Assembly: GCF_018881655.1 (NCBI RefSeq)
Contig: NZ_JACVPX010000003.1
Location: 139,772 to 171,771, forward strand
DNA length: 32,000 nt
Direction: 5' to 3'
Origin: Polynucleobacter sp. Tro8-14-1
GTDB taxonomy: Bacteria > Pseudomonadota > Gammaproteobacteria > Burkholderiales > Burkholderiaceae
Shown here piece by piece: positions 4,545 to 27,389 of this stretch. The notes under the pieces were generated by a model. It was not told the origin of the DNA. It did no database searches and saw only the letters and a list, made by a program, of their open reading frames with translations. A program made the position numbers and the translations under genes. Position 1 is the stretch's first letter. Each line of letters starts with the position of its first letter.

Positions 4545-5237
4545 TTAAACCGAAATCATCTCCTGAACACCATTGAGATCCATATCAGCACCTTTGCCTT
4601 GCGCGACGACTTCACCGCGGCGCATCACGATATAGTTATCTGAGAGCTCTTTTGCAAAGTCGTAATACTGCTCTACTAATAAAACAGTGATGCCCATCTC
4701 ATCGACTAATTTACGAAGACAGCGCCCAATGTCCTGAATGATAGATGGCTGGATACCCTCGGTAGGCTCATCCAAAATGATCAACTCTGGCTGAGACATC
4801 AATGCACGCCCAATTGCTAACTGCTGTTGTTGGCCACCTGACAAATCACCGCCCCGACGCGCCTTCATATCCGACAGAATTGGAAATAGCTCGTAAATAT
4901 ATCCAGGGATATTTTTTGGGCTTGAGAATTTTGCCGCTCCAATGAGCAAGTTTTCTTCGACTGTGAGTCTTGGGAAAATTTCTCGACCCTGAGGAACATA
5001 GGCAAATCCACCGTCCACCCGAGACCACGGGGGTAGATTGGCCAATTCTTTTCCATCCCAAGCAATCGAGCCAGTCTTTACTTTCACCACACCCATGAGC
5101 GATTTGAGCAAAGTGGTTTTGCCAACGCCATTTCGCCCAAGCAAACTGGTTAATTGACCTTTGGGGACTTCAAAATTCACATTACGCAAAATATGGCTTC
5201 CGCCATAATATTGATTGAGATCTTTGACGATAAGCAT
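4545..5237 (-). CDS. urtE: urea ABC transporter ATP-binding protein UrtE
   Basis: 230-aa ABC ATPase (Walker A GRNGVGKTT, signature LSGGQQQ, Walker B LIILDEP). It is the last gene of a five-gene branched-chain-type transporter adjacent to urease. Confidence 0.9.
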   Translation of the reverse strand: MLIVKDLNQYYGGSHILRNVNFEVPKGQLTSLLGRNGVGKTTLLKSLMGVVKVKTGSIAWDGKELANLPPWSRVDGGFAYVPQGREIFPRLTVEENLLIGAAKFSSPKNIPGYIYELFPILSDMKARRGGDLSGGQQQQLAIGRALMSQPELIILDEPTEGIQPSIIQDIGRCLRKLVDEMGITVLLVEQYYDFAKELSDNYIVMRRGEVVAQGKGADMDLNGVQEMISV

Positions 5238-5239
5238 GA

Positions 5240-6037
5240 TTAACGCCCTAAATACGATTCGATTACGCGTTCATCACGCTTTACTTCATCCAAAGTGCCC
5301 TCGGCTAGAACTGAACCTTCAGCCAATACAGTCACCTTACCTTTTGGGCCCGCTAAAGCAGCAACAAATTCCATATCATGCTCAACTACCATCATCGAGC
5401 ATTGACCACGTAATGAATTTAGAAGCTCAGCTAAGCGCATTGTTTCTTCGTCCGTCATCCCTGCAACGGGCTCATCAAGCAATAACAGCTTGGGCTGCTG
5501 CATTAGAAGCATACCAATCTCTAAGCGTTGCTTTTGACCGTGAGAAAGAAGGCCAGCTTCACGATAAGCTTCTGACTCTAACTGTGTAAGGGCAAGCACT
5601 GATTCCATCAAACGACGGCCCTCTAGATCTACTTTAGCAATCAAGGAGTGATGCCATGATTTATCTCCAGCCATTGCCAATTCAAGATTTTCCCAAACAG
5701 GGTGATGCTCAAATACCGTGGGCTTTTGAAATTTACGGCCAACGCCAATTTGGGCAATTTGTGGCTCGTTCATGGTCATAAGATCAATGGTCGAACCTAA
5801 ATAAACGGAGCCATCAATATCGGCAATGTTAGAGCGAGTTTTACCGGTAATGACATCCATTAAGGTAGTCTTACCGGCGCCATTGGGCCCAATCACACAG
5901 CGCAGTTCGCCGACATCAATCGTCAATGACAATTTATTAATGGCCTGAAAACCGTCAAAATTGACCGATAGATCATCCACATAGAGGATTCCAGTATGAG
6001 AAGTATCGATTCCCTTCTCAAGAAAGTGAGCGCTCAT
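5240..6037 (-). CDS. urtD: urea ABC transporter ATP-binding protein UrtD
   Basis: 265-aa ABC ATPase (GPNGAGKTT, LSHGQKQ, LLLLDEP) at the fourth position of the urt operon. Confidence 0.9.
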   Translation of the reverse strand: MSAHFLEKGIDTSHTGILYVDDLSVNFDGFQAINKLSLTIDVGELRCVIGPNGAGKTTLMDVITGKTRSNIADIDGSVYLGSTIDLMTMNEPQIAQIGVGRKFQKPTVFEHHPVWENLELAMAGDKSWHHSLIAKVDLEGRRLMESVLALTQLESEAYREAGLLSHGQKQRLEIGMLLMQQPKLLLLDEPVAGMTDEETMRLAELLNSLRGQCSMMVVEHDMEFVAALAGPKGKVTVLAEGSVLAEGTLDEVKRDERVIESYLGR

Positions 6038-7185
6038 TTTGACCCACCCTTCTTAACAACCAATTTGTGATAGATACCCAGCAATCCATTCGGTAGAAAC
6101 AAGGTCACCAATACAAACATCATTCCTAAGAAAAACAGCCAATATTCTGCAAAGTTAGTGGTAAAAAAACTCTTAGCCCCGCTCACCGCAAATGCGCCAA
6201 TAATTGGACCTAGCAAGGTGCCGCGGCCACCTACTGCTACCCAGATCGCCATCTCAATCGAGTTTGTTGGAGACATCTCTCCAGGATTAATGATGCCCAC
6301 CTGCGGAACGAATAAAGCTCCAGCAATGGCGCATAGGATGGCAGATAGAACCCAAATAAAGAGTTTGTAACCTAAGGGGTTGTACCCACAAAACATCAAA
6401 CGAGATTCTGCATCCCGTACCGCTGTAATCACCCTTCCCATTTTTGAGGTCACCAGGGCTCGGCAAAGAATAAAACTGCCCAACAGGACTAAGAAGGTAA
6501 CAATGAAAAGTGTGACGCGAGTACTTGGCGCGCTGATGGAGTAACCCAATATCCGCTTAAAGTCCGTGAAACCATTGTTGCCACCAAAGCCCGTTTCATT
6601 CCTAAAGAAAAGAAGCATAGCGGCATATGTTAAGGCTTGGGTAATGATGGAGAAGTAAACCCCTTTAATTCTGGAGCGAAAAGCAAAGTATCCAAACACC
6701 CAAGAAATCGCTCCAGGAACCAGAATCAACATCAAAAGCATCCACCAGAAATGATCGCTCCCTTTCCAAAACCAAGGTAACTCTTTCCAGTCTAAGAAAA
6801 CCATGAAGTCAGGTAATTCGCTTTTGTATACACCTTCAGTTCCTATCTGGCGCATGAGATACATGCCCATGATGTAACCGCCAATAGCAAAGAACAATCC
6901 ATGCCCCAAACTCAATATTCCGCAATAACCCCAAACCAAATCAAGCGCTAAGGCCGCAATTGCAAAGCACATAATCTTGCCAATTAAACTAAGCGCATAA
7001 GCAGACATGTAGAACATACTAGTCTCGGGAACCAGCAAAGAAAATATTGGCACACCAATTAATACGCACAGTGTCAATGCTGCTAAGGCAATATAGGCAC
7101 GCTTGCTGAGTATGGATTCACGCTCAGGAATTGCCAAACTAAAGCTAGATGAAGGAGCAAGCTTTCTAATATCCATATTAATCAA
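6034..7185 (-). CDS. urtC: urea ABC transporter permease UrtC
   Basis: 383-aa polytopic LivM-like permease, overlapping both urtB and urtD. Confidence 0.88.
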   Translation of the reverse strand: MINMDIRKLAPSSSFSLAIPERESILSKRAYIALAALTLCVLIGVPIFSLLVPETSMFYMSAYALSLIGKIMCFAIAALALDLVWGYCGILSLGHGLFFAIGGYIMGMYLMRQIGTEGVYKSELPDFMVFLDWKELPWFWKGSDHFWWMLLMLILVPGAISWVFGYFAFRSRIKGVYFSIITQALTYAAMLLFFRNETGFGGNNGFTDFKRILGYSISAPSTRVTLFIVTFLVLLGSFILCRALVTSKMGRVITAVRDAESRLMFCGYNPLGYKLFIWVLSAILCAIAGALFVPQVGIINPGEMSPTNSIEMAIWVAVGGRGTLLGPIIGAFAVSGAKSFFTTNFAEYWLFFLGMMFVLVTLFLPNGLLGIYHKLVVKKGGSK

Positions 7186-10260: not shown

Positions 10261-10836
10261 AGAACGATATGAGAGAAATTGCAGTTAGAGGATTTATAAA
10301 CGAGAAATTTAATACCACCTTCGGTAAAGGCTTATTTAGAAGAGCGATGTTTAATGGCTCAGTAGAGCTAGGTAGCCCAAATCAAAAATACCTAGTGGAT
10401 TACTTTGAATATAGCAATTGGGAAAATACTGCCAAAACAGATGAGCAGATGGCAACTGTTCGAAAACTCAGCGAGGCTGGTATTGCAGGTCAAGCTGGAG
10501 TTTTAATGTCTTGGATCCAACATTACGATCCACTCACTAAGACAAAGCAAGGTGTTGGCGGATTTAGCATCTACTCCCCAGAAACCAAGGAGCTGCATGT
10601 AGAGATTGAAGATCAAGCAAACAACACCAAGGATTCCTGGACGCTAGATGTACATCTTTGTAAAAGTACTGGCGTTAATAAGCCAGTGTTTATAGCAACC
10701 AATGTGGATTTGAACTAATTGACGCTTTGAATTTGTACAAAATTCGCCTCAAAAAAGCCCTATACGCAAAGATCTATTAGCTTCGCAATAATGAGTAGCT
10801 GGAATTACTAAAAACAGCGTATAGCGCGAATTTGAG
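10261..10836 (+). repeat. 576-bp near-identical direct repeat, copy 1 (149-aa ORF cassette)
   Basis: Base-by-base comparison with 18275-18850 shows only 4 differences (10481, 10489, 10490, 10499). Confidence 0.95.
10269..10718 (+). CDS. hypothetical protein, 149 aa (copy 1)
   Basis: Intact ORF, 148/149 aa identical to 18283..18732. No family recognised. This copy lacks the AAGGAG Shine-Dalgarno sequence present before copy 2. Confidence 0.6.
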   Translation: MREIAVRGFINEKFNTTFGKGLFRRAMFNGSVELGSPNQKYLVDYFEYSNWENTAKTDEQMATVRKLSEAGIAGQAGVLMSWIQHYDPLTKTKQGVGGFSIYSPETKELHVEIEDQANNTKDSWTLDVHLCKSTGVNKPVFIATNVDLN

Positions 10837-10907
10837 CTACTAGCAGTAATTCGTGGGATTTTCGCCACGATCCGCACTAAATACAAGCATTGATTCGTCA
10901 ATAAAAA

Positions 10908-10977
10908 CGATTAAGAAAATATACATTTTCTTAATCGAATTATTTTTGTTTTACTAAGTCATTGATTCTTGGAAGAT
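10908..10977 (+). promoter_or_regulatory. conserved palindrome plus 23-bp box upstream of short recombinase 1
   Basis: Perfect 13-bp-arm palindrome CGATTAAGAAAAT-ATAC-ATTTTCTTAATCG (10908-10937), followed by TAAGTCATTGATTCTTGGAAGAT (10955-10977). Both elements recur upstream of recombinase 2. Confidence 0.55.
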
Positions 10978-11074
10978 CTTTTGACTGCAACCCGAACTTG
11001 AGCCTCGGTTGTCCTTTTGGAAATAAGAAAACACACTCTATATGTAATTTTATTTATCAAAGGAAAACCCATAA

Positions 11075-11641
11075 ATGGCACAAGCAAAAACCCTTACCCA
11101 AGCAGAGCTCGATCAAATACTGCGTTATGTCTCCACTAAGAAATATCCGCAGCGTGACAGAGCTATCATTCTCACCAGTTTTTGGTCGGGACTTCGCGTT
11201 GCAGAAATTGCATCGCTTAAGATGGGCGATGTTCTCAATATTGATGGCAGTATCAAAAATGAAATCCGTTTGTCTGCAGCTCAAACGAAAGGCGGTCAAC
11301 CGAGAACCGTATTTCTTCCTAAGAAACTACAAGACGAATTATTGGCCTATGTCGGCACTAGACATGCCAAGATGCCAGAGATCCCTTTTTTCCATACAGC
11401 AAACAGACTGGGATTTTCTGCCAACGGCTTATGCGTATGGTTTTATTGGAACTACAAACACTCTGGCATTTCTGGGGCAACGAGCCATTCAGGCAGAAGA
11501 ACCTTTATTACGAATTTAGCCAATAAAGGTATTTCAGTAAGAGTTTTGGCTAGTTTGGCAGGCCATAAATCCATTGCCGTTACCCAAAAATACATTGACG
11601 TAAATGACGATATGAAACGCAATGCAGTAGAGCTCATTTAA
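11075..11641 (+). CDS. short (catalytic-domain-only) tyrosine recombinase, copy 1
   Basis: 188 aa with tyrosine-recombinase catalytic residues in order: R (GLRVAE), K (QTKGG), HxxR (HSGRR), H..Y (GHKSIAVTQKY). There is no N-terminal core-binding domain. Confidence 0.85.
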   Translation: MAQAKTLTQAELDQILRYVSTKKYPQRDRAIILTSFWSGLRVAEIASLKMGDVLNIDGSIKNEIRLSAAQTKGGQPRTVFLPKKLQDELLAYVGTRHAKMPEIPFFHTANRLGFSANGLCVWFYWNYKHSGISGATSHSGRRTFITNLANKGISVRVLASLAGHKSIAVTQKYIDVNDDMKRNAVELI

Positions 11642-11665
11642 GTTTGTCGGTTTAACCGACAAACT
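11641..11665. repeat. island palindrome copy a (core GTCGGTTTAACCGAC 11646-11660)
   Basis: Perfect 12-bp arms AGTTTGTCGGTT-T-AACCGACAAACT, overlapping the stop codon of recombinase 1. Confidence 0.9.
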
Positions 11666-11758: not shown

Positions 11759-12349
11759 TTATTGGCTGCTGAGCTTATCTAGAATGAGTTGCGCTAGCGC
11801 CTTCTCGTCACCAAAAAAGGCTAACTCCATTGCTTGATACATTTGGGACTGGTTTAGATCGGAATAATTGAGCCTAAACCCAGCCTCGCTAGCTAACTGA
11901 GCAATAAACACTCGCTGCACCCGTCCATTGCCATCCCGAAATGGATGCAAGACATTAATCTCAGAAAGATAGTGGGCTAACTTCTGTGCAACTTGCTTGA
12001 TATCTTGATTTTGGAATAAATGCTCTTTAGCTAAATTACTGAATAAAGTTTTAGCGGCTGAATCAATCATGCGGATATTTGCAAAACGGCTATTTTCACG
12101 GCTTATATCTACAGTCCGAATCTTTCCAGCCCAATCATAGACATCTTGAAAAAGAGCATAGTGAATTGCTTGTAAATGCGCTAAATCAAAATTACCTTGA
12201 ATTGGCTCTAAATCTAAAGCCACTAAACGCGAAGCAGTCATATCAGACTCAAACGCCTCAAGCTCATTTTGATCCCTAAAGCCCAATTTGTTTTGCAATA
12301 CCGGAGAACCCGGATAGCAATAGACACTATCCGCGTCGTAGCGCGACAT
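11759..12349 (-). CDS. Fic-domain toxin (class I FicT-like AMP-transferase)
   Basis: Carries the Fic motif HPFRDGNGRVQR, matching HxFx(D/E)GNGRxxR. I place the start at MSRYDAD (12349) rather than the track start at 12412, which would run deep into the antitoxin ORF. Confidence 0.85.
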   Translation of the reverse strand: MSRYDADSVYCYPGSPVLQNKLGFRDQNELEAFESDMTASRLVALDLEPIQGNFDLAHLQAIHYALFQDVYDWAGKIRTVDISRENSRFANIRMIDSAAKTLFSNLAKEHLFQNQDIKQVAQKLAHYLSEINVLHPFRDGNGRVQRVFIAQLASEAGFRLNYSDLNQSQMYQAMELAFFGDEKALAQLILDKLSSQ

Positions 12350-12518
12350 AGCGTTCTTTAGTCTCTGCAATGATTTGATCGATTGTTTTTGATCCACCAA
12401 TAAAGGCATCAAAATCTTTCATCAACTCATTGCTAGGCTTCATACCCTCTACCCGCAAAGAACCCAAGGCATTGTCAACAATGTCTTTTCGGTTTAAGGT
12501 AGTTTGATTATTTTTCAT
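12327..12518 (-). CDS. VbhA/FicA-like antitoxin
   Basis: Small ORF directly upstream of fic, overlapping it by 23 nt. It contains the inhibitory motif (S/T)xxxE(G/N) as SLRVEG. The start may instead be at 12581. Confidence 0.75.
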   Translation of the reverse strand: MKNNQTTLNRKDIVDNALGSLRVEGMKPSNELMKDFDAFIGGSKTIDQIIAETKERYVALRRG

Positions 12519-12616
12519 AAGGGCTGTTTTATCTATATTACGGTATTTTAAGGGGTGCTTCCAGAAAATTAAACCCTTCATTAAGACCTGCCAGCAAATA
12601 GGGCGTAGGTTGTAGC

Positions 12617-12659: not shown

Positions 12660-13895
12660 CTACCCCGCCAATCTCTCCGCACTGAGCATTGGGGTTAGTT
12701 TGCTGTAATGACGCTCAATCATCCCTACGCTGGCTCCCATTTGCTTTGCTAGCGTATGAATATCAACTCCTTCTTCTAATCTAAATGTGGCATAGGTATG
12801 GCGAAGGCTATACAAGGTCCTGTTTTTACCAGCAGCATACTTAAACAAGCCTGATTCAACCATGAGTCGCTCAAACACGCTATCTAGACTATGGGGTGCA
12901 TCACCCGCAGGAAATACGAATACCTTACGATCCAACTTAGCTTCAATCACAGCATCGAGGTTCTTATAAGGCAAAGCCTGCCAAGTAATTAGTCGCTCTA
13001 AGGCCTCAATCACAAAATGTCTTGCAATCAGATACCTAGGCCCAGTCTTACCTGACACCCAGATCCGTAAATAGCGTTTTTCACCAATCCAGTGCCACTG
13101 CAATGATTTCCAGCGGATTGGCATGCTTTCGGTTCCCTGCCGTATCCCTGTACCTAGCAAGAACTCTACATAGACTCGGCAAAGTCTACGCATATGATTA
13201 CTGCGTTGATTGCGGCCAAAACGCTCCCAGTCCCGCATGTATTCCAATAAGTATTCGATCTCTTGGTGGCTAAAGGCTGGCCTAACCTGCGCAGCACCAC
13301 CGGTTATTTCTAATAAGGGGATATTGCGGTGTTGTGAAATAAGCCCTTGTGCTCTAGCCCGCTCAAGCACCCGCTTATAAAGACCAGCATGACGCCTTTG
13401 AGTATAGGTCTTGGGATTCTTGCCCATCTTAGATATGCGCCACGCTACATAGTCATCCACTAGCTCTTGAGTAATGTCATTGATCTGGTAGTTACCAAAG
13501 AATGGGATCAAGTACTTGGTGTAGATGTGTATGTAATCAACATGAGTGCGCTTATTGGGATTGGCTTGGACTACTCGGGCAGCCATAGCCAACTCTTGCG
13601 TGGCTAGTTGACGAAAGGTACGGGTCTTAATGGCTAGATCGCTTGCTAGCTTGACCTTGACTGTTTCATAGATAGCAATGGCTTGGGTTGTGGCTTCGGC
13701 CACCTGATCTAATCCTGTACTAGCGGAATGCCAGGCGCCAGTTGATAACTTAAAGCGGCATTGCCACTGGTGACTCGTAGGCCTCTTATAGAGGGTGATG
13801 GCACCATCAAGGAGTTTGATGGGCTCATCATCAGTGATAACGGTAGAAAATAAGAGCGATAAATTATTCATTACAAGCGTCTTGTTACGCGACAC
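12660..13895 (-). CDS. tyrosine integrase (island integrase), copy 1
   Basis: 411 aa with R (LGTGIRQGTE), HxxR region (LYSLRHTYAT) and catalytic Y (MIERHYSK). Start is GTG at 13895 or ATG at 13871. Confidence 0.9.
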   Translation of the reverse strand: MSRNKTLVMNNLSLLFSTVITDDEPIKLLDGAITLYKRPTSHQWQCRFKLSTGAWHSASTGLDQVAEATTQAIAIYETVKVKLASDLAIKTRTFRQLATQELAMAARVVQANPNKRTHVDYIHIYTKYLIPFFGNYQINDITQELVDDYVAWRISKMGKNPKTYTQRRHAGLYKRVLERARAQGLISQHRNIPLLEITGGAAQVRPAFSHQEIEYLLEYMRDWERFGRNQRSNHMRRLCRVYVEFLLGTGIRQGTESMPIRWKSLQWHWIGEKRYLRIWVSGKTGPRYLIARHFVIEALERLITWQALPYKNLDAVIEAKLDRKVFVFPAGDAPHSLDSVFERLMVESGLFKYAAGKNRTLYSLRHTYATFRLEEGVDIHTLAKQMGASVGMIERHYSKLTPMLSAERLAG

Positions 13896-13944
13896 TTGCT
13901 AGCTTAATTTCAGATTAGGGTTTGGGCGACCTGAATTATTTAGA

Positions 13945-13959
13945 GTCGGTTAAACCGAC
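13945..13959. repeat. island palindrome copy c (GTCGGTTAAACCGAC)
   Basis: Lies 50 nt upstream of the integrase 1 start and is followed by ACTACAGCG. Confidence 0.9.
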
Positions 13960-15763: not shown

Positions 15764-15950
15764 ACCACAAGCTCAGCCCCTAAATTTCATCAAAATTACC
15801 CAGTCGTAGGGTCGCACATAGCCCTAAGGATCGCCTACGCTAGACTCAAGGCCTCTCTAACGTCCAAAAGCCCGAGGCATTATCCACCCCACAATCAAGC
15901 CAATTAACCAGCCTGAAACAAGCCTAGAATGACAATAAATGGTAGATAAG

Positions 15951-15995
15951 TGGCCTGCCCAGCACGATTCGAACGTGCGACCTACGCCTTAGAAG
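15951..15995 (-). repeat. tRNA-Arg(TCT) 3' fragment (att-type direct repeat)
   Basis: 45 nt identical to 27313-27357, spanning from the CCA end through the T-arm, variable loop, 3' anticodon stem strand and anticodon loop. Identity stops at the 5' edge of the anticodon loop. Confidence 0.92.
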
Positions 15996-16126: not shown

Positions 16127-16141
16127 GTCGGTTTAACCGAC
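16127..16141. repeat. island palindrome copy e (GTCGGTTTAACCGAC)
   Basis: Lies just inside the distal end of GI-B and is followed by ACTAAA. Confidence 0.9.
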
Positions 16142-16343
16142 ACTAAATCAGGCGAACCCACAGCAAGCCTTGGCAAACCATTTTTACTATGCCTCTCGTC
16201 CCCACGAACAGGGAAATTTATAAAGCACAAAGATCGGCAAAACCACTGCATTTTGGCGTGATTTTGCACATTAGCTATTTTGATGGGGCTTAGCGTAAAT
16301 CAGGTGGGGGATGCAATCTCGAGCGGCGCAAAAAACTACGCGG

Positions 16344-16688
16344 CTAGATATTTGCACGAGCAGCTGAAATCTGCTGTTGGGCTCGTTTAATCTTTTGTCG
16401 ATTACGCTCTGCCTTTAATGCCTTACTAGCAGTGTCTTTCTGATTTTGTAAGCTAGCCACCCTAGCCTGCTCGGGTGTTTGCGGCGGCTTAGCTTTAATT
16501 GAAGAAATAACCTCATCAATCATTTGATGCCCCCTGCTTTCATGGGTGACGAGTGATGGTTGACTAGCTAGGCTATCCATCCCAAATTGATATTGCAAAA
16601 TTAATCTAGCGTGAATTGGATTTGTGGCAAAAACAGCCGTATTTACTAACTGACCCTTGATCCTTACATAGGCTTGATATTTATTCAT
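16344..16688 (-). CDS. hypothetical protein, 114 aa, basic Gln/Lys/Arg-rich C-terminal helix
   Basis: ORF only. No Shine-Dalgarno sequence is visible and no family is recognised. Confidence 0.45.
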   Translation of the reverse strand: MNKYQAYVRIKGQLVNTAVFATNPIHARLILQYQFGMDSLASQPSLVTHESRGHQMIDEVISSIKAKPPQTPEQARVASLQNQKDTASKALKAERNRQKIKRAQQQISAARANI

Positions 16689-16727
16689 GCAAGTATTTAG
16701 CCAGTCTTATTTTGACTGACTAAAACT

Positions 16728-16748
16728 AAAGGCGCCTAATGCGCCTTT
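16728..16748. terminator. GC-rich hairpin between the toxin-antitoxin operon and the 114-aa ORF
   Basis: AAAGGCGC-CTAAT-GCGCCTTT. On the minus strand it is followed by AGTTTTAG, 28 nt after the DUF5615 stop. Confidence 0.5.
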
Positions 16749-16775
16749 AGAGTGAAATGGGTATCAGTAATTGAG

Positions 16776-17126
16776 CTACTCATGCGTAATCAAACCATCA
16801 CTAGTAATCTCTATAAAACGATGGTCCTCAAATGCTTTCGCAACAGCAGATAAGTTCGCTTGCAACAGATTCTCTAAATTGCGATTGGATATATTGCCAG
16901 TAGAAATTAACAGTAAAGCAGGTTCGCCGTTTAACAAAAAAGCCTGTACAAAGTCATCGTCTTTGGTGACTACAACTCGAGCTTCTTTAATAGCGCAAGC
17001 AATGACATCTTTATCTGGAGTTGCATTTTTGAGAGGTAGATCAGAGGTATGAATAGCATCATGTCCTTGAGCCTCCAACCAACCAACAAATCGCTTTGGC
17101 AGTTGGGCGTCTACTAAAAACTTCAT
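16776..17126 (-). CDS. DUF5615-family PIN-like putative toxin
   Basis: 116 aa starting MKFLVDAQLPKRFVGWLEAQGHDAIH, as I remember for DUF5615. A 4-nt overlap couples it to the upstream DUF433 gene. Confidence 0.7.
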   Translation of the reverse strand: MKFLVDAQLPKRFVGWLEAQGHDAIHTSDLPLKNATPDKDVIACAIKEARVVVTKDDDFVQAFLLNGEPALLLISTGNISNRNLENLLQANLSAVAKAFEDHRFIEITSDGLITHE

Positions 17127-17347
17127 GCCACCAAACGCTCAAATCGTTTAACATGACTTAATCTTGCAGCATAGGCAAGAGACGCCAAAATATCTTCTTT
17201 GTTAAGGTCTGGATAGTCAGCCAAAATCTCTTCGGTACTCATGCCGCTAGCCAGCCACTCTAAAACATTTTCTACGGGGTAACGCAAGCCGCGAATACAG
17301 GGCTTGCCATGGCAAATAACCGGATCAACAGTGATTAAATTAGCCAT
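17123..17347 (-). CDS. DUF433-family putative antitoxin
   Basis: 74 aa from ATG 17347, preceded by AAAGGAG. The DUF433-like sequence is CHGKPCIRGLRYPVENVLEWLASGMSTEEILADYPDL. Confidence 0.72.
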   Translation of the reverse strand: MANLITVDPVICHGKPCIRGLRYPVENVLEWLASGMSTEEILADYPDLNKEDILASLAYAARLSHVKRFERLVA

Positions 17348-17429
17348 TTGAATCTCCTTTCGCATCATAATTTGGCTTGTTAAAGCATGGGTAGATTTTA
17401 TACTGCTAGACCAAAAATTAGCATCTTTT

Positions 17430-17459
17430 CTTTAGAGCAATACTGCTATTGCTCTAAAG
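17430..17459. repeat. 13-bp-arm perfect palindrome
   Basis: CTTTAGAGCAATA-CTGC-TATTGCTCTAAAG, between the 148-aa ORF and the toxin-antitoxin operon. No U-tract follows on either strand. Confidence 0.6.
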
Positions 17460-17464
17460 ACCCC

Positions 17465-17911
17465 TTATAGCTGCCTCTTAAAGCCACTGCCAAGACTAGA
17501 GCTCGCTAACTCAATCTGGGGATCTAAATCCCCTGCTTCCACAGCAACCTTAACTGTTTCTAGCGCCTTAATTAAGTCCTCGGCACTATCAACTTGAATA
17601 CTGGGCTTGCCTTTGGCCAATTCAATTGTGCAAGCTCCATATCTAATGGAAACACAGACCTTCCCTTCTTCAGTCTGAAACCACCACGGCTTAATACGTT
17701 TTGGAACTTCTACTTGCTTACGAATCCCTGTCTCCTTATCTTTAATGCTGCGAAACTTCATTAGTACAAAAGGGGTTCCCGACATCTGCCCTTTAGCCAA
17801 CTGGATCTGCTCCCATAATCGACTTGAAAGTTTATTCCTTCGAATCACAATCGCTGGTTGATGAACCGGCTTCTTGAGAGCCACTAGTTTTAATGCGGTC
17901 AATGCGCTCAT
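17465..17911 (-). CDS. hypothetical protein, 148 aa
   Basis: ORF with a strong Shine-Dalgarno sequence (AGGAGGGAAT-ATG) at the internal Met (17911). No family recognised. Confidence 0.6.
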   Translation of the reverse strand: MSALTALKLVALKKPVHQPAIVIRRNKLSSRLWEQIQLAKGQMSGTPFVLMKFRSIKDKETGIRKQVEVPKRIKPWWFQTEEGKVCVSIRYGACTIELAKGKPSIQVDSAEDLIKALETVKVAVEAGDLDPQIELASSSLGSGFKRQL

Positions 17912-18274
17912 ATTCCCTCCTATAAATGAAAGAGTCATTTCAATTTATTTTCGAAATATTGGATTGGACAACCTCTTTTTTATTTTGGCTAATTTTGAGC
18001 CAGAAATTAATGGGTTTTCTTAACAAAAGCTAAATACTTTTGCGAGTTGCTGTGTTTCAAAGTACGGTCGCAAATAGATAAAGAAGTTACTGGTAGTGAG
18101 TTACTAGTTACTCGAGTGGCAAATGAGTAGCTCTGACTAGCAACACGACTTAGTGACTATCTCTTTGAGATCTGCAACTGAACTTAAAGCAACATCTTTT
18201 TGGATCTACTCCTCTAGCAACCAAGCTACGAAAGCAACAGCTCGCAACGAGAACTCAATCAATTTTAAAAAAGG

Positions 18275-18850: not shown

Positions 18851-18942
18851 GTGTTACTCGAGGATCGCTGGTTTAAGTCCGTTTAGCTGTTGTCTAAATT
18901 CCACGAAAAGAAGCGATTTTTTATAAATACTACATAAAGAAC

Positions 18943-19001
18943 AGGTTAAGAAAATTGTACTTTTCTTAACCTGCCTTGTAAGTCATTGATTCTTGGAAGA
19001 T
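18943..19001 (+). promoter_or_regulatory. conserved palindrome plus 23-bp box upstream of short recombinase 2
   Basis: AGGTTAAGAAAA-TTGTAC-TTTTCTTAACCT (18943-18972), then TAAGTCATTGATTCTTGGAAGAT (18979-19001), which is identical to the box at 10955-10977. Confidence 0.55.
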
Positions 19002-19096
19002 ATTTTTTGATGGCCAAATAAACAAATTTCGGTCGACCTTTTAAGACTTAGAAAACATACTAAATACACACTTTTTATTTATCTAAGGAGAATTAA

Positions 19097-19663
19097 ATGG
19101 CACAAGCAAAAACACTATCTCAAACAGAACTAGATCTAGTTCTTAATTACGTCAGCACCAAAAAATATGCCTTGCGCGATAGAGCGTTAATACTTACAAG
19201 CTTTCTTGGTGGCCTTCGCGTTGCCGAAATTGCCAGCTTGAAAATGGGCGATGTATTAAATCTCGATGGCACTATTAAAAATGAAATCCGCCTATCGGCC
19301 TCACAAACCAAGGGTAAGCACCCTAGGACTGTATTCGTCTCACAGCGTTTACAGGCGGAATTGGCCAACTACTTAACAACAAGATACATAAAAGAAGCTG
19401 ATATTCCCCTCTTTCATACAGATCATCGTTTGAGATTTAGTGCTAATGGCTTATGTGTGTGGTTCTATCAGCTCTATAAGAATGTGGGTATTAGCGGTGG
19501 CAGCAGCCATTCAGGAAGAAAATTCTTTATTACTACCCTCGCTAATAAAGGGATTGGTGTTCGAATCTTAGCCAGTCTAGCTGGTCACAGATCAATTGCA
19601 GTGACTCAGAGATATATCGATGTCAATGATGAGCAAAAGAGGAATGCTGTCGAGCTAATTTAA
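19097..19663 (+). CDS. short (catalytic-domain-only) tyrosine recombinase, copy 2
   Basis: 188 aa, roughly three-quarters identical to copy 1 by eye, with the same catalytic residues. Preceded by AAGGAG. Confidence 0.85.
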   Translation: MAQAKTLSQTELDLVLNYVSTKKYALRDRALILTSFLGGLRVAEIASLKMGDVLNLDGTIKNEIRLSASQTKGKHPRTVFVSQRLQAELANYLTTRYIKEADIPLFHTDHRLRFSANGLCVWFYQLYKNVGISGGSSHSGRKFFITTLANKGIGVRILASLAGHRSIAVTQRYIDVNDEQKRNAVELI

Positions 19664-19669
19664 ATGGCA

Positions 19670-19685
19670 GTCGGGTAAAACCGAC
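19670..19685. repeat. island palindrome copy f (GTCGGGTAAAACCGAC)
   Basis: Begins 6 nt after the recombinase 2 stop and is followed by TCTAAC. Confidence 0.9.
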
Positions 19686-19686
19686 T

Positions 19687-20502
19687 CTAACAGGCATGCC
19701 TAGTCAATTGCGATACTCGATCTTTTGCGCAGTCAAACTCGTGATTACCTAATGAAAATAATCGGCTAGCAAAATTTTCATCTTCAAAATTAAAGCGGGT
19801 TTGAAAGCTTTTACCTAATTCTTGTTGTGGGAATATACCAAGTGCAGCCTGCTCTGAGATATTTAAAGCGCTTTCCTTGTGCCTCATGACCATTAAGGTC
19901 ATATGGCGCCGCATGTGATCATCCCCACTTTTGTGCCTTGCTGCCAATGGGTCTAACCTCCCGATAAAGCGATCTACTAGCATTGCCATTGCCCCAGCCC
20001 TCCAGAGCTCAGTATCGGGATTTAAAGCCATGGTGTAGATTAGGAGCAAATCTTTCCACATATTCTTTAATTTAGCGCCTTTAAGTACTTGACTATGAAT
20101 TTGCTTGATTTGAGTATTTGGCCAAATTTGCGATAAAGCATTAACCAGTTGGGATATTGATGGGGGGTCTTGATCGCTACAAAGCTTTAGCAATACGTCG
20201 TCATCACAAACAAAAAACCTGTCTTTGCCTTTAATAATTTCAATTACTGGAGGAGACGAATCCATCAGCTGCTTCTTATGACCTTCAAACCAAGTCGTAA
20301 ATGGACAATCTAAGACACAACCGTACTTGGAGTAACAATCTAAGATCTTACGATTATCAAGACTCATTTTCTTAGTTAATCGTTTTGGTCTCACATACTT
20401 GCTAGCGGCGGTATAGCTAGGACTTATACGTAAAAAGTTAAAGAAAAGCCTCGCCATCTCCTGATGACAGTCTTGCTGCTCCGCACAAAGTTTTCCGCCC
20501 AT
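19687..20502 (-). CDS. hypothetical protein, 271 aa
   Basis: Long ORF divergent from the next two genes, with GGAG 8 nt upstream of the ATG. No family recognised. Confidence 0.6.
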   Translation of the reverse strand: MGGKLCAEQQDCHQEMARLFFNFLRISPSYTAASKYVRPKRLTKKMSLDNRKILDCYSKYGCVLDCPFTTWFEGHKKQLMDSSPPVIEIIKGKDRFFVCDDDVLLKLCSDQDPPSISQLVNALSQIWPNTQIKQIHSQVLKGAKLKNMWKDLLLIYTMALNPDTELWRAGAMAMLVDRFIGRLDPLAARHKSGDDHMRRHMTLMVMRHKESALNISEQAALGIFPQQELGKSFQTRFNFEDENFASRLFSLGNHEFDCAKDRVSQLTRHAC

Positions 20503-20639
20503 GCGGATATCTCCAGCCTAAATTTACCTACTTTTTTTAATTCTAAATTTTGTATGTATTCACTACAGGGATGGTGAAGTGAAATCAGATTGTGAATGGA
20601 ATTCACCATCACATTTTTAACAATTTCAGGAGAAAATCC

Positions 20640-21464
20640 ATGAGTGAAACTACTGTAGTCGAATCAGGCGTTAGCGCCCCTAACGCTGAAAAAACGAATG
20701 CCAACCCTTTTGCAGTGGGAATTGGCAATTTATTAACAGGCAGCAATCCAGAAAAAGCCATCGGCGACTCTATTGATCGCCTAGTTGAATATCGCAAAAA
20801 CTGGGAAAGTAATGAGCTTTCTAGTGCAAATGATGTCTTGTATGGAATCTTGCGGCATTGTTACGCCTTAAACAACACAATGCAAGGCTCAGACAGTATT
20901 GCCAAAAGCCTTAAAAAAGGTCTAGCGAACTACATCAAGACCCATGAATACAAGTTCAGCGACAGCTCGCCACTAATCACTAAGATCGTGAAATGTGTAT
21001 TTGGTGTTGATCGTCGTAGGGTTAATGCCTATAGCACAGCTATGAAGGCAGCAATGGCTGAGAGAGTGAGCGTACTTGATCTACCAAAATATTTCCGTGA
21101 AAAAGGTGGCGTTGAGGAAGTTAGACGCTCTACTACTAGCAAAGGCAAATCGATTGCTCAGAAGGTGGAATTAGGACGTACTGTACTCAATGGCGAAATA
21201 CTAGCGAAGGTACAAAGTGATTCTCTTAATGCCTCATTCTCAAATGAGCAGCTAGAGGAAGGTGTTGTGTTGCTGGCAACACGAGAAGATGATGGCAGTT
21301 TTGCAATCCGCAGAGTCATCCAAAGTGGAACAGCAGTTAAATCAGCGTTAGCAGCTTGCTCCAGTGTCGGCGCTGAAAAAGAAAAAGCACAGAAACTAGC
21401 TGATGAGGCTAAAGCAATTGAAGATGAGCGTTTAGCCGCCCAATCTAAATTAAAAGCTGCTTGA
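20640..21464 (+). CDS. hypothetical protein, 274 aa, Ala/Lys/Glu-rich C-terminal tail
   Basis: The start at 20640 follows AGGAG. The C-terminus EKEKAQKLADEAKAIEDERLAAQSKLKAA looks like a coiled coil. No family recognised. Confidence 0.65.
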   Translation: MSETTVVESGVSAPNAEKTNANPFAVGIGNLLTGSNPEKAIGDSIDRLVEYRKNWESNELSSANDVLYGILRHCYALNNTMQGSDSIAKSLKKGLANYIKTHEYKFSDSSPLITKIVKCVFGVDRRRVNAYSTAMKAAMAERVSVLDLPKYFREKGGVEEVRRSTTSKGKSIAQKVELGRTVLNGEILAKVQSDSLNASFSNEQLEEGVVLLATREDDGSFAIRRVIQSGTAVKSALAACSSVGAEKEKAQKLADEAKAIEDERLAAQSKLKAA

Positions 21465-21480
21465 GCTTGTTGTTCTACAT

Positions 21481-21523
21481 ATGATTGCTGGCATTTACCT
21501 TCCAAGATAAATCCAGCAATCAT
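21481..21523 (+). terminator. 11-bp-stem hairpin with T-rich tail between the 274-aa gene and the AAA+ gene
   Basis: ATGATTGCTGG-(21 nt)-CCAGCAATCAT followed by TTCATTATTTT. The loop is large, so it may be an attenuator or processing site rather than a strong terminator. Confidence 0.4.
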
Positions 21524-21546
21524 TTCATTATTTTAAGGAGATTGCG

Positions 21547-22296
21547 ATGCATAACCCTAGACCACCCTCTATTGTCATACAAGCACCCGGATGTTTAGAT
21601 GATTTTGCTTTACAACCTAATAGTCGATTTAAGCTTGAGTCCATACTTGATTTAAGTCTGCATATTCCAGCTAACGGTATTTGTGGGATTGTTCTATATG
21701 GTTTATACGGAACTGGTAAAACTACTCTGGCCAACTTATTGCCAGGCTTAATTGAAACGGCCAAAGTCAATCCTGCTTGTGCAGCATTGAATGCTGGATC
21801 TATCATTGATACAGAAGATCCTAATTCAGATTATTTTGCCTGCGCACAAGGTCAGAACGGCGCTCAATTAACTCAATCGATTCAAAATAGAACCACTTAT
21901 ATGTCATTTAATAGTAGTGGTCTACATTACATCATCATGGATGAGGTTGATGTCTTAACCCCAGCAGCGCAAGCAGGCTTCAAATCAATCATGAATCGTA
22001 AAGACGTCATATTCATCATGACTAGCAATAACTTAGATCAAATTGATAAAGGCCTTCAGAATCGATCAATTTTGATTGATATGAATGTTCCACCAATTAA
22101 TGATTGGCGACCAATTTTGCGTCGTGTTTATGAAAATGCAGGTCTACCAGCACCGCCTGATGATGTATTAGATCAAGTGGTTCAGGCTGGTAGAGGATCA
22201 GCTCGAAGCATTTTTTCAGATATCGTGATGAGCGTTAACCAAGAGGTGAGAGAAAAGCATGAGACTCACTTAATTACCCTTAAAGCATGCAGTTAA
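21547..22296 (+). CDS. clamp-loader/RFC-like AAA+ ATPase, 249 aa
   Basis: Walker A GLYGTGKTT, Walker B IIMDEVD, sensor-1 MTSNN, SRC-like QNRS and sensor-2-like GRGSARS. A Shine-Dalgarno AAGGAG lies upstream. Confidence 0.75.
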   Translation: MHNPRPPSIVIQAPGCLDDFALQPNSRFKLESILDLSLHIPANGICGIVLYGLYGTGKTTLANLLPGLIETAKVNPACAALNAGSIIDTEDPNSDYFACAQGQNGAQLTQSIQNRTTYMSFNSSGLHYIIMDEVDVLTPAAQAGFKSIMNRKDVIFIMTSNNLDQIDKGLQNRSILIDMNVPPINDWRPILRRVYENAGLPAPPDDVLDQVVQAGRGSARSIFSDIVMSVNQEVREKHETHLITLKACS

Positions 22297-22308
22297 GTGA
22301 TATGTAGC

Positions 22309-22324
22309 GTCGGGTAAAACCGAC
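22309..22324. repeat. island palindrome copy g (GTCGGGTAAAACCGAC)
   Basis: The extended near-palindrome TGTAGCGTCGGGTAAAACCGACACTACA (22303-22330) lies between the AAA+ stop and the integrase 2 stop. Confidence 0.9.
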
Positions 22325-22325
22325 A

Positions 22326-23567: not shown

Positions 23568-23615
23568 TTGTAGCTTAATTTCAGATTTACGTTTGGGCGA
23601 CCTGAATTATTTACT

Positions 23616-23630
23616 GTCGGTTAAACCGAC
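23616..23630. repeat. island palindrome copy h (GTCGGTTAAACCGAC)
   Basis: Lies 49 nt upstream of the integrase 2 start and is followed by ACTACAGCG. Confidence 0.9.

Positions 23631-27012: not shown

Positions 27013-27389
<377 letters not shown>

Follow-up and report, generated by a model that had tools for sequence, protein, structure and literature searches.

Self-encoded resolution systems are known from Cre/loxP of phage P1, TnpI/IRS of Tn4430 and ResD/rfsF of plasmid F. In all of them the recombinase gene adjoins its own site, which consists of inverted arms of 11–14 bp around an asymmetric center of 6–8 bp, and XerS likewise adjoins its difSL site. A core-binding domain N-terminal to the catalytic domain is typical of tyrosine recombinases, although not universal. 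To our knowledge, all Xer proteins have this domain, and for recombinases that lack it activity is known only at fim-type sites, where host factors assist. At the fim switch, IHF is one of these.

The DNA analyzed here, a stretch of 32,000 nucleotides from a freshwater Polynucleobacter (the window), contains two islands in tandem, each of them with one gene for a recombinase of 188 residues. In the explanation that we prefer, and that we consider moderately probable, each island carries a self-contained module of ~720 bp (a core site, a box for a bending protein and the recombinase gene), which would recombine DNA at its own palindrome. The site lies beside the gene and has inverted arms and an asymmetric center, as in the lox/res-type systems.

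Two tandem islands and their catalytic-domain-only recombinases

The genes of the two islands to which the analysis refers were the following:

27313..27389, minus strand: tRNA-Arg(TCT), the integration target
11075..11641, plus strand: recombinase 1, 188 aa, consisting of a tyrosine-recombinase catalytic domain alone
19097..19663, plus strand: recombinase 2, 188 aa
12660..13895, minus strand: classical integrase of island 1, 411 aa, SAM-like domains at its N-terminus
22326-23567: classical integrase of island 2, 413 aa, with ~95% DNA identity to the integrase of island 1
10269..10718, plus strand: backbone gene of 149 aa (cluster C5), directly 5' of recombinase 1
18283-18732: second copy of the 149-aa C5 gene
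17465..17938, minus strand: DUF6641 backbone gene (cluster C1) of island 2
19687..22296: backbone genes 3' of recombinase 2
within 19687..22296, minus strand: ORF of 271 aa in the C2 position (assigned by position only)
within 19687..22296, plus strand: C4, 290 aa
within 19687..22296, plus strand: C6, a clamp-loader-like AAA+ ATPase of 249 aa

The 3' 45 nt of the tRNA-Arg(TCT) gene, together with 50 nt of its flank (27263-27357), were repeated at 15901-15995, which is the junction of the two tandem islands. The 149-aa gene gave no match in Pfam or NCBIfam. The stretches 10261-10836 and 18275-18850 were 99–100% identical, and past 10836 and 18850 the islands could hardly be aligned, the exceptions being the box and the promoter-proximal blocks described below; the earlier note had likewise seen that the DNA around the box has diverged. 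A small HUH Rep-like protein was present in some of the homologous loci and, together with the clamp-loader-like AAA+ ATPase, hints at replication of the island after excision. Relative to the integrase, the backbone block pointed one way in some loci and the opposite way in others.

Tycheposon-like or 'additive' flexible islands at tRNA genes have been described (PMC10872708; bioRxiv 10.1101/2020.12.28.424599). They share with the present islands the tandem arrangement at a tRNA gene whose 3' end is repeated, the inward-facing integrase, the small backbone and the variable cargo. A tyrosine recombinase annotated 'xerD' inside one Methylophilaceae flexible island, and insertion clusters flanked by an integrase annotated 'xerC', are noted in PMC10872708; the 188-aa protein carries the JGI label XerD. 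The passages of the two sources that were searched mention neither a catalytic-domain-only recombinase nor the palindrome or the box. Literature searches on DUF6641, and on small recombinases in articles about tycheposons or flexible islands, returned nothing specific.

The family of the recombinase comprised 3625 matches and, among the best 120 listed, nearly all were 188 aa long. It is encoded by a backbone gene of islands in Polynucleobacter, Limnohabitans and Methylophilaceae (all three dominant in freshwater bacterioplankton), as well as in Rhodocyclales and Burkholderia, and the gene-plus-site module recurs in the island backbones of freshwater Betaproteobacteria. Recombinase 1 shared 78–80% identity with Methylophilaceae copies and 71–74% with other Polynucleobacter copies. 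A second, minimal recombinase conserved alongside the classical integrase had been reported in the earlier note; the two genes do travel together, but the small one does so as a separate backbone gene.

Recombinases 1 and 2 were 74% identical as proteins and 65.6% identical as DNA; hence the figure of ~73% that had been given for the genes is right for the proteins and too high for the DNA. Their codon differences were 86 synonymous versus 48 non-synonymous. The sole Pfam match was Phage_integrase (PF00589), which covered profile positions 2-170 of 172 with scores (78.5 and 78.8 bits) above the cut-off of 27.1 and places both proteins in the superfamily. The residues R41, K72, H138, R141, H164 and Y173 were invariant in 35 sequences, and these six catalytic residues were at least 95% conserved in 87 sequences with identities down to ~35%. 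No core-binding domain was recognized, the catalytic-domain match beginning 5 residues into the protein, and no remnant of an N-terminal domain was detected 5' of the genes of relatives, where in-frame extensions stopped within 0–63 codons. The protein start M[AS]QAKT[LF]T was conserved in the homologues. A truncated pseudogene, which the earlier note had kept in mind, was ruled out by the conserved start, the closed upstream frames and the 188-aa homologues. The protein is a genuine, complete catalytic-domain-only tyrosine recombinase, and the description of both ORFs as having 188 aa, the full catalytic set and no N-terminal domain was correct.

Furthermore, a confident AlphaFold (AF2) model, with a pLDDT of 86 and a pTM of 0.82, could be superposed on XerA, Tn1549 Int, IntI4, Cre and XerH, in each case on the catalytic domain. 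The TM-score was 0.65–0.77 over the query and only ~0.4–0.55 over the two-domain targets, and the matches were confined to the C-terminal half of these targets. The best matches in both sequence and structure were Xer proteins (XerA 4a8e and 5hxy, and the NCBIfam XerA model). Nevertheless, the scores lay far from Xer membership, with 77 bits against a cut-off of 220 for XerA (NCBIfam) and 64–66, 59–62 and 40–49 bits against cut-offs of 335, 330 and 267 for the XerC, XerD and XerS models, respectively.

The palindrome and the box upstream of the gene

Between the conserved 149-aa gene and the recombinase gene, the following elements were located:

10908..10937, unstranded: palindrome of island 1, CGATTAAGAAAAT-ATAC-ATTTTCTTAATCG
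18942..18973, unstranded: palindrome of island 2, CAGGTTAAGAAAA-TTGTAC-TTTTCTTAACCTG
10955..10977, plus strand: 23-bp box of island 1, TAAGTCATTGATTCTTGGAAGAT
18979..19001, plus strand: 23-bp box of island 2, same sequence
11009..11037, plus strand: promoter-like block of island 1, TTGTCC (11009-11014), 17 nt, CACACT (11032-11037)
19033..19061, plus strand: promoter-like block of island 2, TCGACC, 17 nt, CATACT, with the same geometry as in island 1
11048..11057, plus strand: inverted arm-core copy TTTTATTTAT, ~25 nt 5' of the ATG

The palindromes were present 5' of both genes, where the earlier note had seen them. Written as 11-6-11, that of island 1 reads ATTAAGAAAA / TATACA / TTTTCTTAAT. 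A palindrome was found in all 80 loci at a fixed place, 100–140 nt 5' of the ATG, with the family consensus ACCAAAGAAAA-N6-TTTTCTTTGGT and inverted arms of 11–13 bp around an asymmetric 6-bp center. Its geometry is that of a tyrosine-recombinase core site, and it is proposed to be the putative recombination and binding site. The two sites of the window differed in their centers (TATACA versus TTGTAC) and also in outer arm bases.

Symmetric variants of the arms occurred across the family (AAAGGAAA/TTTCCTTT, AAATCAAA/TTTGATTT, AAAGGTTTT/AAAACCTTT and ACAGGAAA/TTTCCTGT). Covariation, for which the two copies of the window had been only suggestive, was strong across 69 distinct homologous sites: the score was 0.32 versus 0.14 in shuffles (0 of 500 shuffles reached 0.32) and 0.05–0.11 in slid controls, and 144 cells were changed on both sides versus 68 in shuffles. 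Since G.U-type intermediates were rare (19 one-sided changes versus 144 two-sided, with 204 unpaired), a symmetric protein site on DNA fits better than an RNA helix, and the latter was disfavored. A known RNA at the palindrome was also rejected, as a search of 10700-11120 against Rfam was empty both with the gathering threshold and with a limit of E <= 1.

Two further identities of the palindrome were considered and are less favored. Compared by eye with dif and pdif, it looks unlike a site for the host Xer system. It is also unlikely to be the att site of the flanking integrase, because in the other four loci with this type of integrase the gene ends in GC hairpins instead.

It is highly unlikely that the palindrome belongs to the upstream gene, as its terminator or an RNA hairpin and nothing else, and that the box is just a piece of a promoter. 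The palindrome does lie 3' of the 149-aa gene, and in island 1, where a T-rich run comes after the stem, a terminator-like call was obtained for both strands, but this run is missing in island 2 (plus strand) and is not conserved in the family. Moreover, loci with a different upstream gene, or without it, keep the palindrome at the recombinase gene, and the AT-rich stems, the scarcity of G.U intermediates and the empty Rfam search do not suit a terminator either.

The box TAAGTCATTGATTCTTGGAAGAT occurred exactly twice in the window, both times on the plus strand, against a chance expectation of 0. Its 3' end lies 97 nt (island 1) and 95 nt (island 2) from the ATG, in good agreement with the ~95 nt noted before. 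Read on the minus strand, the first 13 nt of the box give AATCAATGACTTA, a sequence that conforms to the IHF consensus WATCAANNNNTTR; in island 2 the IHF-like consensus lies on the minus strand at 18979-18991. The full IHF consensus was present in 30 of the 71 distinct upstream regions versus 0.003 expected per region, and from this match we infer that the box is a putative IHF site. Both palindrome and box were thus retained in further homologues, and the box that had been called invariant is identical in the two islands, while at the scale of the family it is the full IHF consensus that is kept in 30 of 71 regions. Two other readings of the box, that it is a sigma-54 promoter and that it belongs to a second palindrome, were rejected, neither being consistent across clades when judged by eye.

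The size of the protein, the missing core-binding domain and the IHF-like site recall FimB/FimE, and a FimB/FimE-type invertase could flip a promoter segment to switch neighboring genes. As the earlier note had reported, no inverted copy of the box was found in the window; none appeared at 3 mismatches either, nor within +/-6 kb of 80 loci. A scan of +/-6 kb of 80 loci with the consensus pattern found a second palindrome only at locus L018, in direct orientation, and half-site searches in the window and the 80 loci gave scattered single matches only and no clear second site. Additionally, the matches to PRK09870 and PRK09871 were weak (38.1 and 24.6 bits against 221 and 222) and were outscored by the Xer models (77 bits), and a single compact palindrome is present rather than two separated inverted repeats. 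The resemblance to FimB/FimE therefore holds for size (~200 aa without a core-binding domain) and fails for sequence membership, and an invertible switch, a candidate in the earlier note, is very improbable.

The promoter-like block lies 3' of the box, and may be the promoter of the gene, judging from columns that are conserved throughout the family when the upstream regions are aligned (GGTYGnCC ... AAAGAAAACAYACT); a simple sigma-70 scan did not call the block of island 1. The spacer of island 1 holds a direct arm-core copy, AATAAGAAAA (11022-11031), and that of island 2 the copy ACTTAGAAAA (19046-19055). In many loci the inverted arm core is conserved at -24 to -27, where it reads TTTTCTTTAT or TTTTATTTAT. 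The co-variation of these promoter-proximal half-sites with the arms of their own locus was weak (permutation p = 0.15 and 0.02, the value of 0.02 belonging to the inverted arm-core copy of the 11048..11057 type).

Half-sites that overlap a promoter-like block, with the palindrome just 5' of it and one site in nearly every locus, would also be expected of a pure regulator, in which the integrase fold would serve as a DNA-binding repressor and the palindrome and half-sites as IHF-looped operators, with no recombination. A precedent is reported in bioRxiv 10.1101/2025.11.27.690993, in which the SPbeta-like phage repressor SroF binds DNA via an integrase-like fold. Nevertheless, 87 sequences show little or no change at the six catalytic residues, the nucleophile Y173 among them, and a pure repressor needs none of these, and the 6-bp asymmetric center and the block boundaries at the site would be left unexplained. 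Autoregulation and recombination commonly coexist at res-type sites, so the regulator is more a subset of the preferred reading than an alternative to it; as a full explanation it is improbable.

Module boundaries, gene-end hairpins and plasmid relatives

In loci with 93–98% identical recombinase genes, the flanks were unrelated. In Methylophilaceae, the shared block extended from the palindrome's left end (-137 to -161) to the stop codon or at most 60 nt past it. Between near-identical proteins, the right arm and the center were unchanged and the left arm differed, the differences in left arm, center and right arm being 4/0/0 for L015/L017 and 3/0/0 for L017/L021. Two sets of boundaries lie outside the palindrome and count against the recombination model, namely that of the pair in this window (10836/18850), which lies 5' of the palindrome by 72 nt in island 1 and by 92 nt in island 2, and that of the L025-L033 group, at -290 to -343. 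At L018, the gene of a 344-aa integrase lies between two palindrome copies with identical arms; since their centers differ (TTAGCA and TACATA), these copies are not fresh products of one exchange. The L018 duplication aside, no junction explicable only by exchange in the 6-bp center was found among the loci compared.

Both recombinase genes are followed by a GC hairpin:

11641..11665, unstranded: GC hairpin AGTTTGTCGGTTTAACCGACAAACT, 0 nt after the stop codon of recombinase 1
19669..19686, unstranded: GC hairpin AGTCGGGTAAAACCGACT, 5 nt after the stop codon of recombinase 2

These distances bear out the observation that each gene ends 0-6 nt before an island palindrome. The hairpin at 11641..11665 is a member of a family spread throughout the islands. 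Hairpins of the form GTCGG...CCGAC numbered 8 in the window versus 0.03 expected, all of them within the island region, where they bracket both integrase genes and also stand 3' of both recombinase genes; the same hairpin was found 3' of the recombinase gene in Rhodocyclales loci. A hairpin followed 33% of the recombinase genes, 34% of the other backbone genes, 27% of the integrases and 10% of the other ORFs. Given the similar rates after other backbone genes, the hairpins are not specific to the recombinase gene.

An exchange of modules or cassettes, in which the palindrome (attI-like) would be joined to the gene-end hairpins GTCGG-N5-6-CCGAC and their relatives (attC-like), would account for this excess within the islands, for the hairpin in the Rhodocyclales loci and for the contrast between backbone genes (27–34%) and other ORFs. 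Homology blocks bounded by the palindrome on one side and by the stop codon or hairpin on the other, the L018 integrase gene between two palindromes and the varying orientation of the backbone block would fit as well. However, hairpins so unspecific could be terminators or integrase accessory sites, and they share no sequence with the palindrome arms. In addition, neither a promoterless cassette array nor attC-like conserved motifs were seen, and the integron-integrase model TIGR02249, which includes the IntI-specific insertion, gave 40.7 and 28.8 bits against 265. Such an exchange is quite unlikely.

Distant homologues of ~190 aa were found in 503 plasmid records. In Legionella and Piscirickettsia plasmids they adjoin parAB, repB and toxin-antitoxin genes, a neighborhood that is the usual place of multimer-resolution systems, and these relatives beside partition genes suggest an overlooked class of such systems. 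The Acinetobacter plasmid homologue, with 36% identity, has a 14-6-14 palindrome, TAAATGCCCTAAAA-TGTATC-TTTTAGGGCATTTA, at -130 and a third perfect half-site 43 nt 5' of the ATG, with exactly 3 copies of AAATGCCCTAA in 5.5 kb. The sequence of these half-sites is unrelated to the arms of the island family; here the arms change with the protein. By eye, the Piscirickettsia homologue has a similar layout with yet another half-site sequence, and that of an Azospirillum plasmid (L083) only an imperfect upstream palindrome. Plasmid homologues of Legionella (L081, L086) and Paracoccus (L085) had no upstream palindrome above the scoring threshold, so the wider clade does not share this site architecture throughout.

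The combination of inverted repeat and IHF-like site directly 5' of a DNA-processing gene, in an island that already has a classical integrase for its integration, could alternatively belong to an atypical relaxase and its oriT, with a single-strand nick at or near the palindrome and mobilization of the island by a helper conjugative element, a role proposed for MpsA of Salmonella genomic island 1 (SGI1) and for TcpM of pCW3. MpsA is a tyrosine-recombinase-like protein essential for the transfer of SGI1, whose gene is adjoined by an oriT with inverted repeats (PMC6414798). MpsA has ~320 residues with the catalytic Y319, structure models match 91–94% of it to two-domain recombinases, and it needs MpsB, which is core-binding-domain-like (PMC6414798). 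This two-domain size and the dependence on MpsB contrast with the 188 aa found here, where there is no conserved small partner gene 3' of the recombinase gene, the downstream genes varying among loci. Coupling-protein and type IV secretion genes were absent from the loci, and 243 of the 503 plasmids with homologues were typed non-mobilizable. Core sites of recombination typically show this perfect two-fold symmetry around a 6-bp center, while a nick region is located next to an inverted repeat. We therefore find a relaxase function distinctly doubtful.

Proposed reaction and comparison with known systems

In the preferred reading, the 188-aa protein would be an active tyrosine recombinase that works from its catalytic domain alone. 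A dimer would bind both inverted 11–13-bp arms, 100–140 nt 5' of its own gene, and strands would be cleaved and exchanged across the 6-bp asymmetric center, in the manner of Cre/loxP, Xer/dif and TnpI at the Tn4430 IRS. IHF at the box, 2–17 nt 3' of the palindrome, would bend the DNA and bring the arm-core copies that flank the -10-like element beside the core site, and this contact would give the complex its shape and put the gene under autoregulation. Two identical sites, recombined with each other, would allow the excised island, which probably replicates, to be resolved from multimers or tandem arrays. The reverse reaction would fuse islands with a compatible site and, over evolution, DNA blocks would be exchanged at the site.

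With a single site in almost every locus, an intramolecular reaction is impossible without a second island copy. The module probably resolves island multimers or tandem arrays and allows exchange between islands; its anatomy and context favor, as we infer, a separate DNA transaction of this kind, tandem-island resolution or exchange. The different centers and outer arm bases of the two sites in the window make the co-resident modules look mutually incompatible, and this incompatibility would stop tandem islands from deleting each other.

A broader and rather unlikely extension is that the palindrome and the minimal recombinase form a shared docking point for island fusion, for the swapping of backbone and cargo and for separation, across orders of freshwater Betaproteobacteria. 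The 6-bp center would then define a compatibility group, and the GC hairpins might be secondary sites in an integron-like exchange. If true, it would supply the mechanism behind what the title of an article in AEM (2017) calls a 'partially interspecific gene pool', with regard to Polynucleobacter islands.

Should the preferred reading be true, a catalytic-domain-only tyrosine recombinase can use a compact lox/dif-like site with a bending protein, which extends the knowledge gained from the fim invertases. It would also offer very small recombinase-site pairs that seem naturally orthogonal, because the arms and centers differ between copies. The module belongs to the backbone of a widespread, undescribed island family in Polynucleobacter, Limnohabitans and Methylophilaceae, and since recombinase 1 is as near to Methylophilaceae as to Polynucleobacter copies, the module may help to explain the movement of cargo between these lineages.

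Among the known systems, FimB/FimE are alike in their ~190–200 aa, in the absence of a core-binding domain and in a likely dependence on a DNA-bending host factor, and differ in having paired inverted repeats around an invertible segment instead of a single compact palindrome. Xer/dif shares the 11-6-11 site geometry, and XerS/difSL the adjacency of gene and site. In contrast, Xer proteins have a core-binding domain and are encoded by a core gene, whereas the gene described here is multi-copy and island-borne, and the arm ACCAAAGAAAA is by eye unlike dif. MpsA/MpsB of SGI1 and TcpM of pCW3 are comparable as a second recombinase-fold protein in an integrase-bearing island (PMC6414798), and MpsA/TcpM also in the cis-acting inverted-repeat region just 5' of the gene. 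The oriT of MpsA differs in being GC-rich and 125 bp long (PMC6414798), and the loci studied here have neither a partner gene nor a transfer context.

Cre, TnpI and ResD differ in having two domains and 260–340 aa, compared with the catalytic domain of 188 aa found here, to which they are related in sequence only at the superfamily level. The IHF-like box as part of the site, and a tRNA-integrated island with a classical integrase as the host, also set the present module apart from their systems. It resembles them in the extra copies of the arm motif between core site and gene, as in the Tn4430 IRS, and in the plasmid relatives of the 188-aa protein, which sit in maintenance regions as do self-encoded resolution systems.

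Two tandem islands and their recombinases

Two related genomic islands of a Polynucleobacter genome were found in tandem, adjoining a tRNA-Arg(TCT) gene. The last 45 nt of this tRNA and 50 nt of flanking DNA (27263-27357) are repeated exactly at 15901-15995, which places island 2 between about 15996 and 27312, with island 1 on its left; a third copy of the tRNA end was not present in the window.

Features of the island pair (window positions)
10269-10718: 149-aa gene, island 1
10908-10937: palindrome, island 1
10955-10977: 23-bp box, island 1
11075-11641 (+): recombinase 1, 188 aa, directly downstream of the 149-aa gene
12660-13895: classical integrase of about 411 aa, island 1
18283-18732: 149-aa gene, island 2
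18942-18973: palindrome, island 2
18979-19001: 23-bp box, identical to that of island 1
19097-19663 (+): recombinase 2, 188 aa, directly downstream of the 149-aa gene
22326-23567: classical integrase of about 411 aa, island 2
27313-27389: tRNA-Arg(TCT)
11646, 12617, 13945, 15748, 16127, 19670, 22309 and 23616: GTCGG-N5-6-CCGAC hairpins

Both ORFs, both palindromes, both box copies and the hairpin following each stop codon were located where the earlier note had placed them. The two integrase genes share about 95% DNA identity. Island 1 is truncated at the left and has neither the DUF6641 gene nor a distal tRNA repeat; it matches island 2 only from 10261 onwards, 8 nt ahead of the 149-aa gene. 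Across the following 576 nt (10261-10836 versus 18275-18850) identity is 99-100%, whereas it is only 66% in the adjacent recombinase genes, which hints at conversion or recombination in the recent past. From 10836/18850 to the ATG, shared sequence is limited to the palindrome core, the box and some promoter-proximal blocks.

The two recombinases are 74% identical as proteins and 65.6% as genes; of the codon differences, 86 are synonymous and 48 non-synonymous. The integrase catalytic domain was the sole Pfam match and covered nearly the whole protein. The start M[AS]QAKT[LF]T was kept across 80 related loci, in which the upstream frame was closed by a stop within 0-63 codons, and among 3625 homologues nearly all of the best 120 were 188 aa long; recombinase 1 itself was encoded identically in 3 Polynucleobacter isolates. 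The confident AlphaFold model (pLDDT 86, pTM 0.82) superposed on the catalytic domains of XerA, Tn1549 Int, IntI4, Cre and XerH, with the whole query covered and only about half of these two-domain targets. The protein is a real, selected, catalytic-domain-only tyrosine recombinase, as had been proposed.

No curated NCBIfam family was reached by the recombinase, and its best partial matches were Xer models (77 bits, cut-off 220). A FimB/FimE-type switch was not supported; the earlier note had likened the protein to such recombinases in size and listed a switch among its candidates. The invertase models gave 38 and 25 bits (cut-offs 221 and 222). A pure repressor with an integrase fold was also considered, for which SPbeta-like phages offer a precedent (bioRxiv 10.1101/2025.11.27.690993); nevertheless, the six invariant catalytic residues (R41, K72, H138, R141, H164 and Y173) would be superfluous in a repressor.

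The plus-strand segment 1899-2181 matched the Helicobacter "5' ureB sRNA" Rfam family (102 bits, E = 5e-26). It lies within the urease operon, antisense to the urease genes, and the match probably stems from the conserved ureB coding sequence and not from an sRNA.

Architecture of the upstream site

When the 240 nt upstream of the recombinase gene were aligned for all loci, a recurrent order was observed: a TAAATAC motif, the palindrome, the box, a promoter-proximal block (GGTYGnCC, 17 nt, CAYACT, with AAAGAAAA in the spacer), TTTT[CA]TTT about 25 nt before the ATG, and a ribosome-binding site. The palindrome, with the consensus ACCAAAGAAAA-N6-TTTTCTTTGGT, ends 100-140 nt before the ATG, or about 180 nt in one clade.

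Covariation was tested on 69 distinct sites, arranged as 13-6-13, with 500 shuffles and slid windows as controls. The cells that pair amounted to 76% (63% in shuffles, 40-52% in slid controls), a percentage inflated by the choice of each centre for maximal pairing within +/-14 nt. This choice does not inflate the cells changed on both sides, which numbered 144 against 68 and 20-40, respectively. The covariation score was 0.32, compared with 0.14 for the shuffles (reached by 0/500) and 0.05-0.11 for the slid windows, and the covariation first noticed between the two islands was hence borne out in homologues. One-sided G.U-type changes were rare (19) and mismatches occurred on either strand, so the symmetry is a property of the DNA, as would be expected of a site bound by a dimer. 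Reading the palindrome as a terminator or RNA hairpin found no support across the family. An asymmetric 6-bp centre separates the arms; it varies, with limited forms such as TTACAC, [CGT]TAGCA, TTGCTA and TCACGC, which differ even between nearly identical recombinases.

Nucleotides 1-13 of the box are the reverse complement of AATCAATGACTTA, matching WATCAANNNNTTR, the IHF consensus. A full match within 25 nt after the palindrome was found in 30/71 distinct regions (about 0.003 expected per region), and a relaxed one in 41/71. This consensus match suggests binding of IHF.

Island backbone, module boundaries and plasmid relatives

The ORFs of the 80 loci were clustered and identified with Pfam and PHROGs. 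The recurrent order was a DUF6641 protein (minus strand), a protein of about 150 aa, the recombinase, two unknown proteins of about 300 aa and an AAA+ ATPase resembling clamp loaders, with the classical integrase on either side depending on the locus. The 150-aa slot is filled by three unrelated protein types. A 167-aa occupant, seen at L053:5015-5518 (Burkholderia diffusa) and in L057, L061 and further loci, has no relationship to the window's 149-aa protein; it carries rolling-circle Rep-like motifs (FTHAVTLT, HYH, YITK), with a weak Pfam REP_ORF2-G2P match (E = 3e-4).

Hosts included Polynucleobacter, Limnohabitans and other Comamonadaceae, Methylophilaceae, Rhodocyclales, Burkholderia, Paraburkholderia and Janthinobacterium, several genomes having two or three copies. 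Recombinase 1 shares 78-80% identity with the Methylophilaceae copies but only 71-74% with recombinase 2 and other Polynucleobacter copies, a pattern that points to transfer between orders.

The unit of recombinase and site is portable. In many pairs of loci, recombinase genes 93-98% identical were surrounded by unrelated flanks. The block shared among Methylophilaceae has its left boundary where the palindrome begins (-137 to -161) and its right boundary at the stop codon or up to 60 nt past it; nearly identical proteins have the same right arm and centre, with a left arm differing at 2-4 positions. In Polynucleobacter, the conserved block reaches further upstream (-230 through -343). Recombination at the site would explain the sharp left edge in Methylophilaceae, not every boundary. 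In L018, the Methylophilaceae isolate ME-M6, palindromes at 4703-4735 and 5845-5880 with identical arms (TTAGGTAAAGAAAA/TTTTCTTTACCTA) and different centres (TTAGCA versus TACATA) bracket a 344-aa tyrosine integrase gene (4743-5777, minus strand). Locus L076 has tandem recombinase genes, one decayed (5240-5755; SHS changed to SES, C-terminus gone) and one intact (5893-6459), and the frame of the first stops exactly at the palindrome of the second. In L013, L017, L022 and L027-L031, either the DUF6641/150-aa pair or the recombinase-to-ATPase block has the opposite orientation relative to the integrase when compared with the window, and one edge of the rearranged block adjoins the palindrome.

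The eight GC hairpins of the window (0.03 expected) all lie within the island region, flanking both integrase genes and following both recombinase genes. In the Rhodocyclales loci L060 and L062 this hairpin, GTCGGTTTAACCGAC, likewise comes after the recombinase gene, and over all loci hairpins follow 27-34% of backbone genes versus 10% of other ORFs. Possible roles for them are as terminators, as accessory sites of the integrase or as boundaries of modules; an integron-like exchange using them was considered as a rival reading compatible with the data. Immediately within the distal end of island 2 (16127-16148), a 22-nt element consists of a hairpin and ACTAAAT; it recurs inverted just upstream of each integrase gene (13938-13959 and 23609-23630; 95% complementarity), and in island 2 this pair surrounds the entire backbone (16127-23630), leaving the integrase-to-tRNA cargo outside. 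Directly after the recombinase hairpin of island 1, genes for a Fic/DOC-domain protein (217 aa) and an 84-aa upstream partner (11759-12581, minus strand) look like a toxin-antitoxin arrangement; the pair also follows an identical recombinase in L001-L003.

Distant homologues (35-46% identity, about 190 aa) were found in 503 plasmid records, mostly from Acinetobacter, Piscirickettsia, Burkholderia and Legionella, and in annotated contexts the gene adjoins parA/parB, repB and toxin-antitoxin genes. The Acinetobacter plasmid p12SAAs474 has TAAATGCCCTAAAA-TGTATC-TTTTAGGGCATTTA at -130 and, 43 nt ahead of the start codon, a third perfect copy of AAATGCCCTAA; 5.5 kb of sequence contains only these three. 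Its layout is like that of the window sites but its sequence is unrelated; the site goes with its protein. A Piscirickettsia homologue had an 11-4-11 palindrome at -123 and, on visual inspection, additional half-sites closer to the gene, whereas visual inspection of an Azospirillum homologue gave only an imperfect palindrome; two Legionella homologues and one from Paracoccus had no upstream palindrome above the scoring threshold.

Proposed function and known systems

We lean slightly towards reading the module as a self-contained site-specific recombination system. The recombinase would bind both arms and exchange strands across the 6-bp centre, while IHF would bend the DNA at the box; arm-core copies around a -10-like element would provide autoregulation and may act as accessory sites. 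Most likely, its role would be to resolve multimeric or tandemly arrayed copies of the excised island, and the reverse reaction would fuse and exchange islands with a common site. Replication after excision is plausible because of the AAA+ ATPase and, in some loci, the small Rep-like HUH-motif protein. The two sites of the window differ in centre and outer arms, and hence look like those of two incompatible systems residing side by side. In this model, the fold, the catalytic residues, the conserved and covarying site, the consensus match, the block boundaries and the plasmid context have been shown, whereas DNA binding, catalysis, the use of IHF, autoregulation and the role are inferred.

An MpsA/TcpM-like relaxase acting on an oriT is a possible alternative; however, MpsA is much larger and depends on MpsB (PMC6414798), neither a partner gene nor transfer genes were conserved in the loci, and the symmetry of the site fits recombination better.

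Catalytic-domain-only recombinases are known from the fim-type invertases, and modules of a recombinase plus its site are also known. As far as the libraries and papers were searched, the undescribed part is the combination: a recombinase lacking a core-binding domain, a compact lox/dif-like palindrome and an IHF-like box, with a conserved position within an abundant family of freshwater islands and relatives in plasmid maintenance regions.
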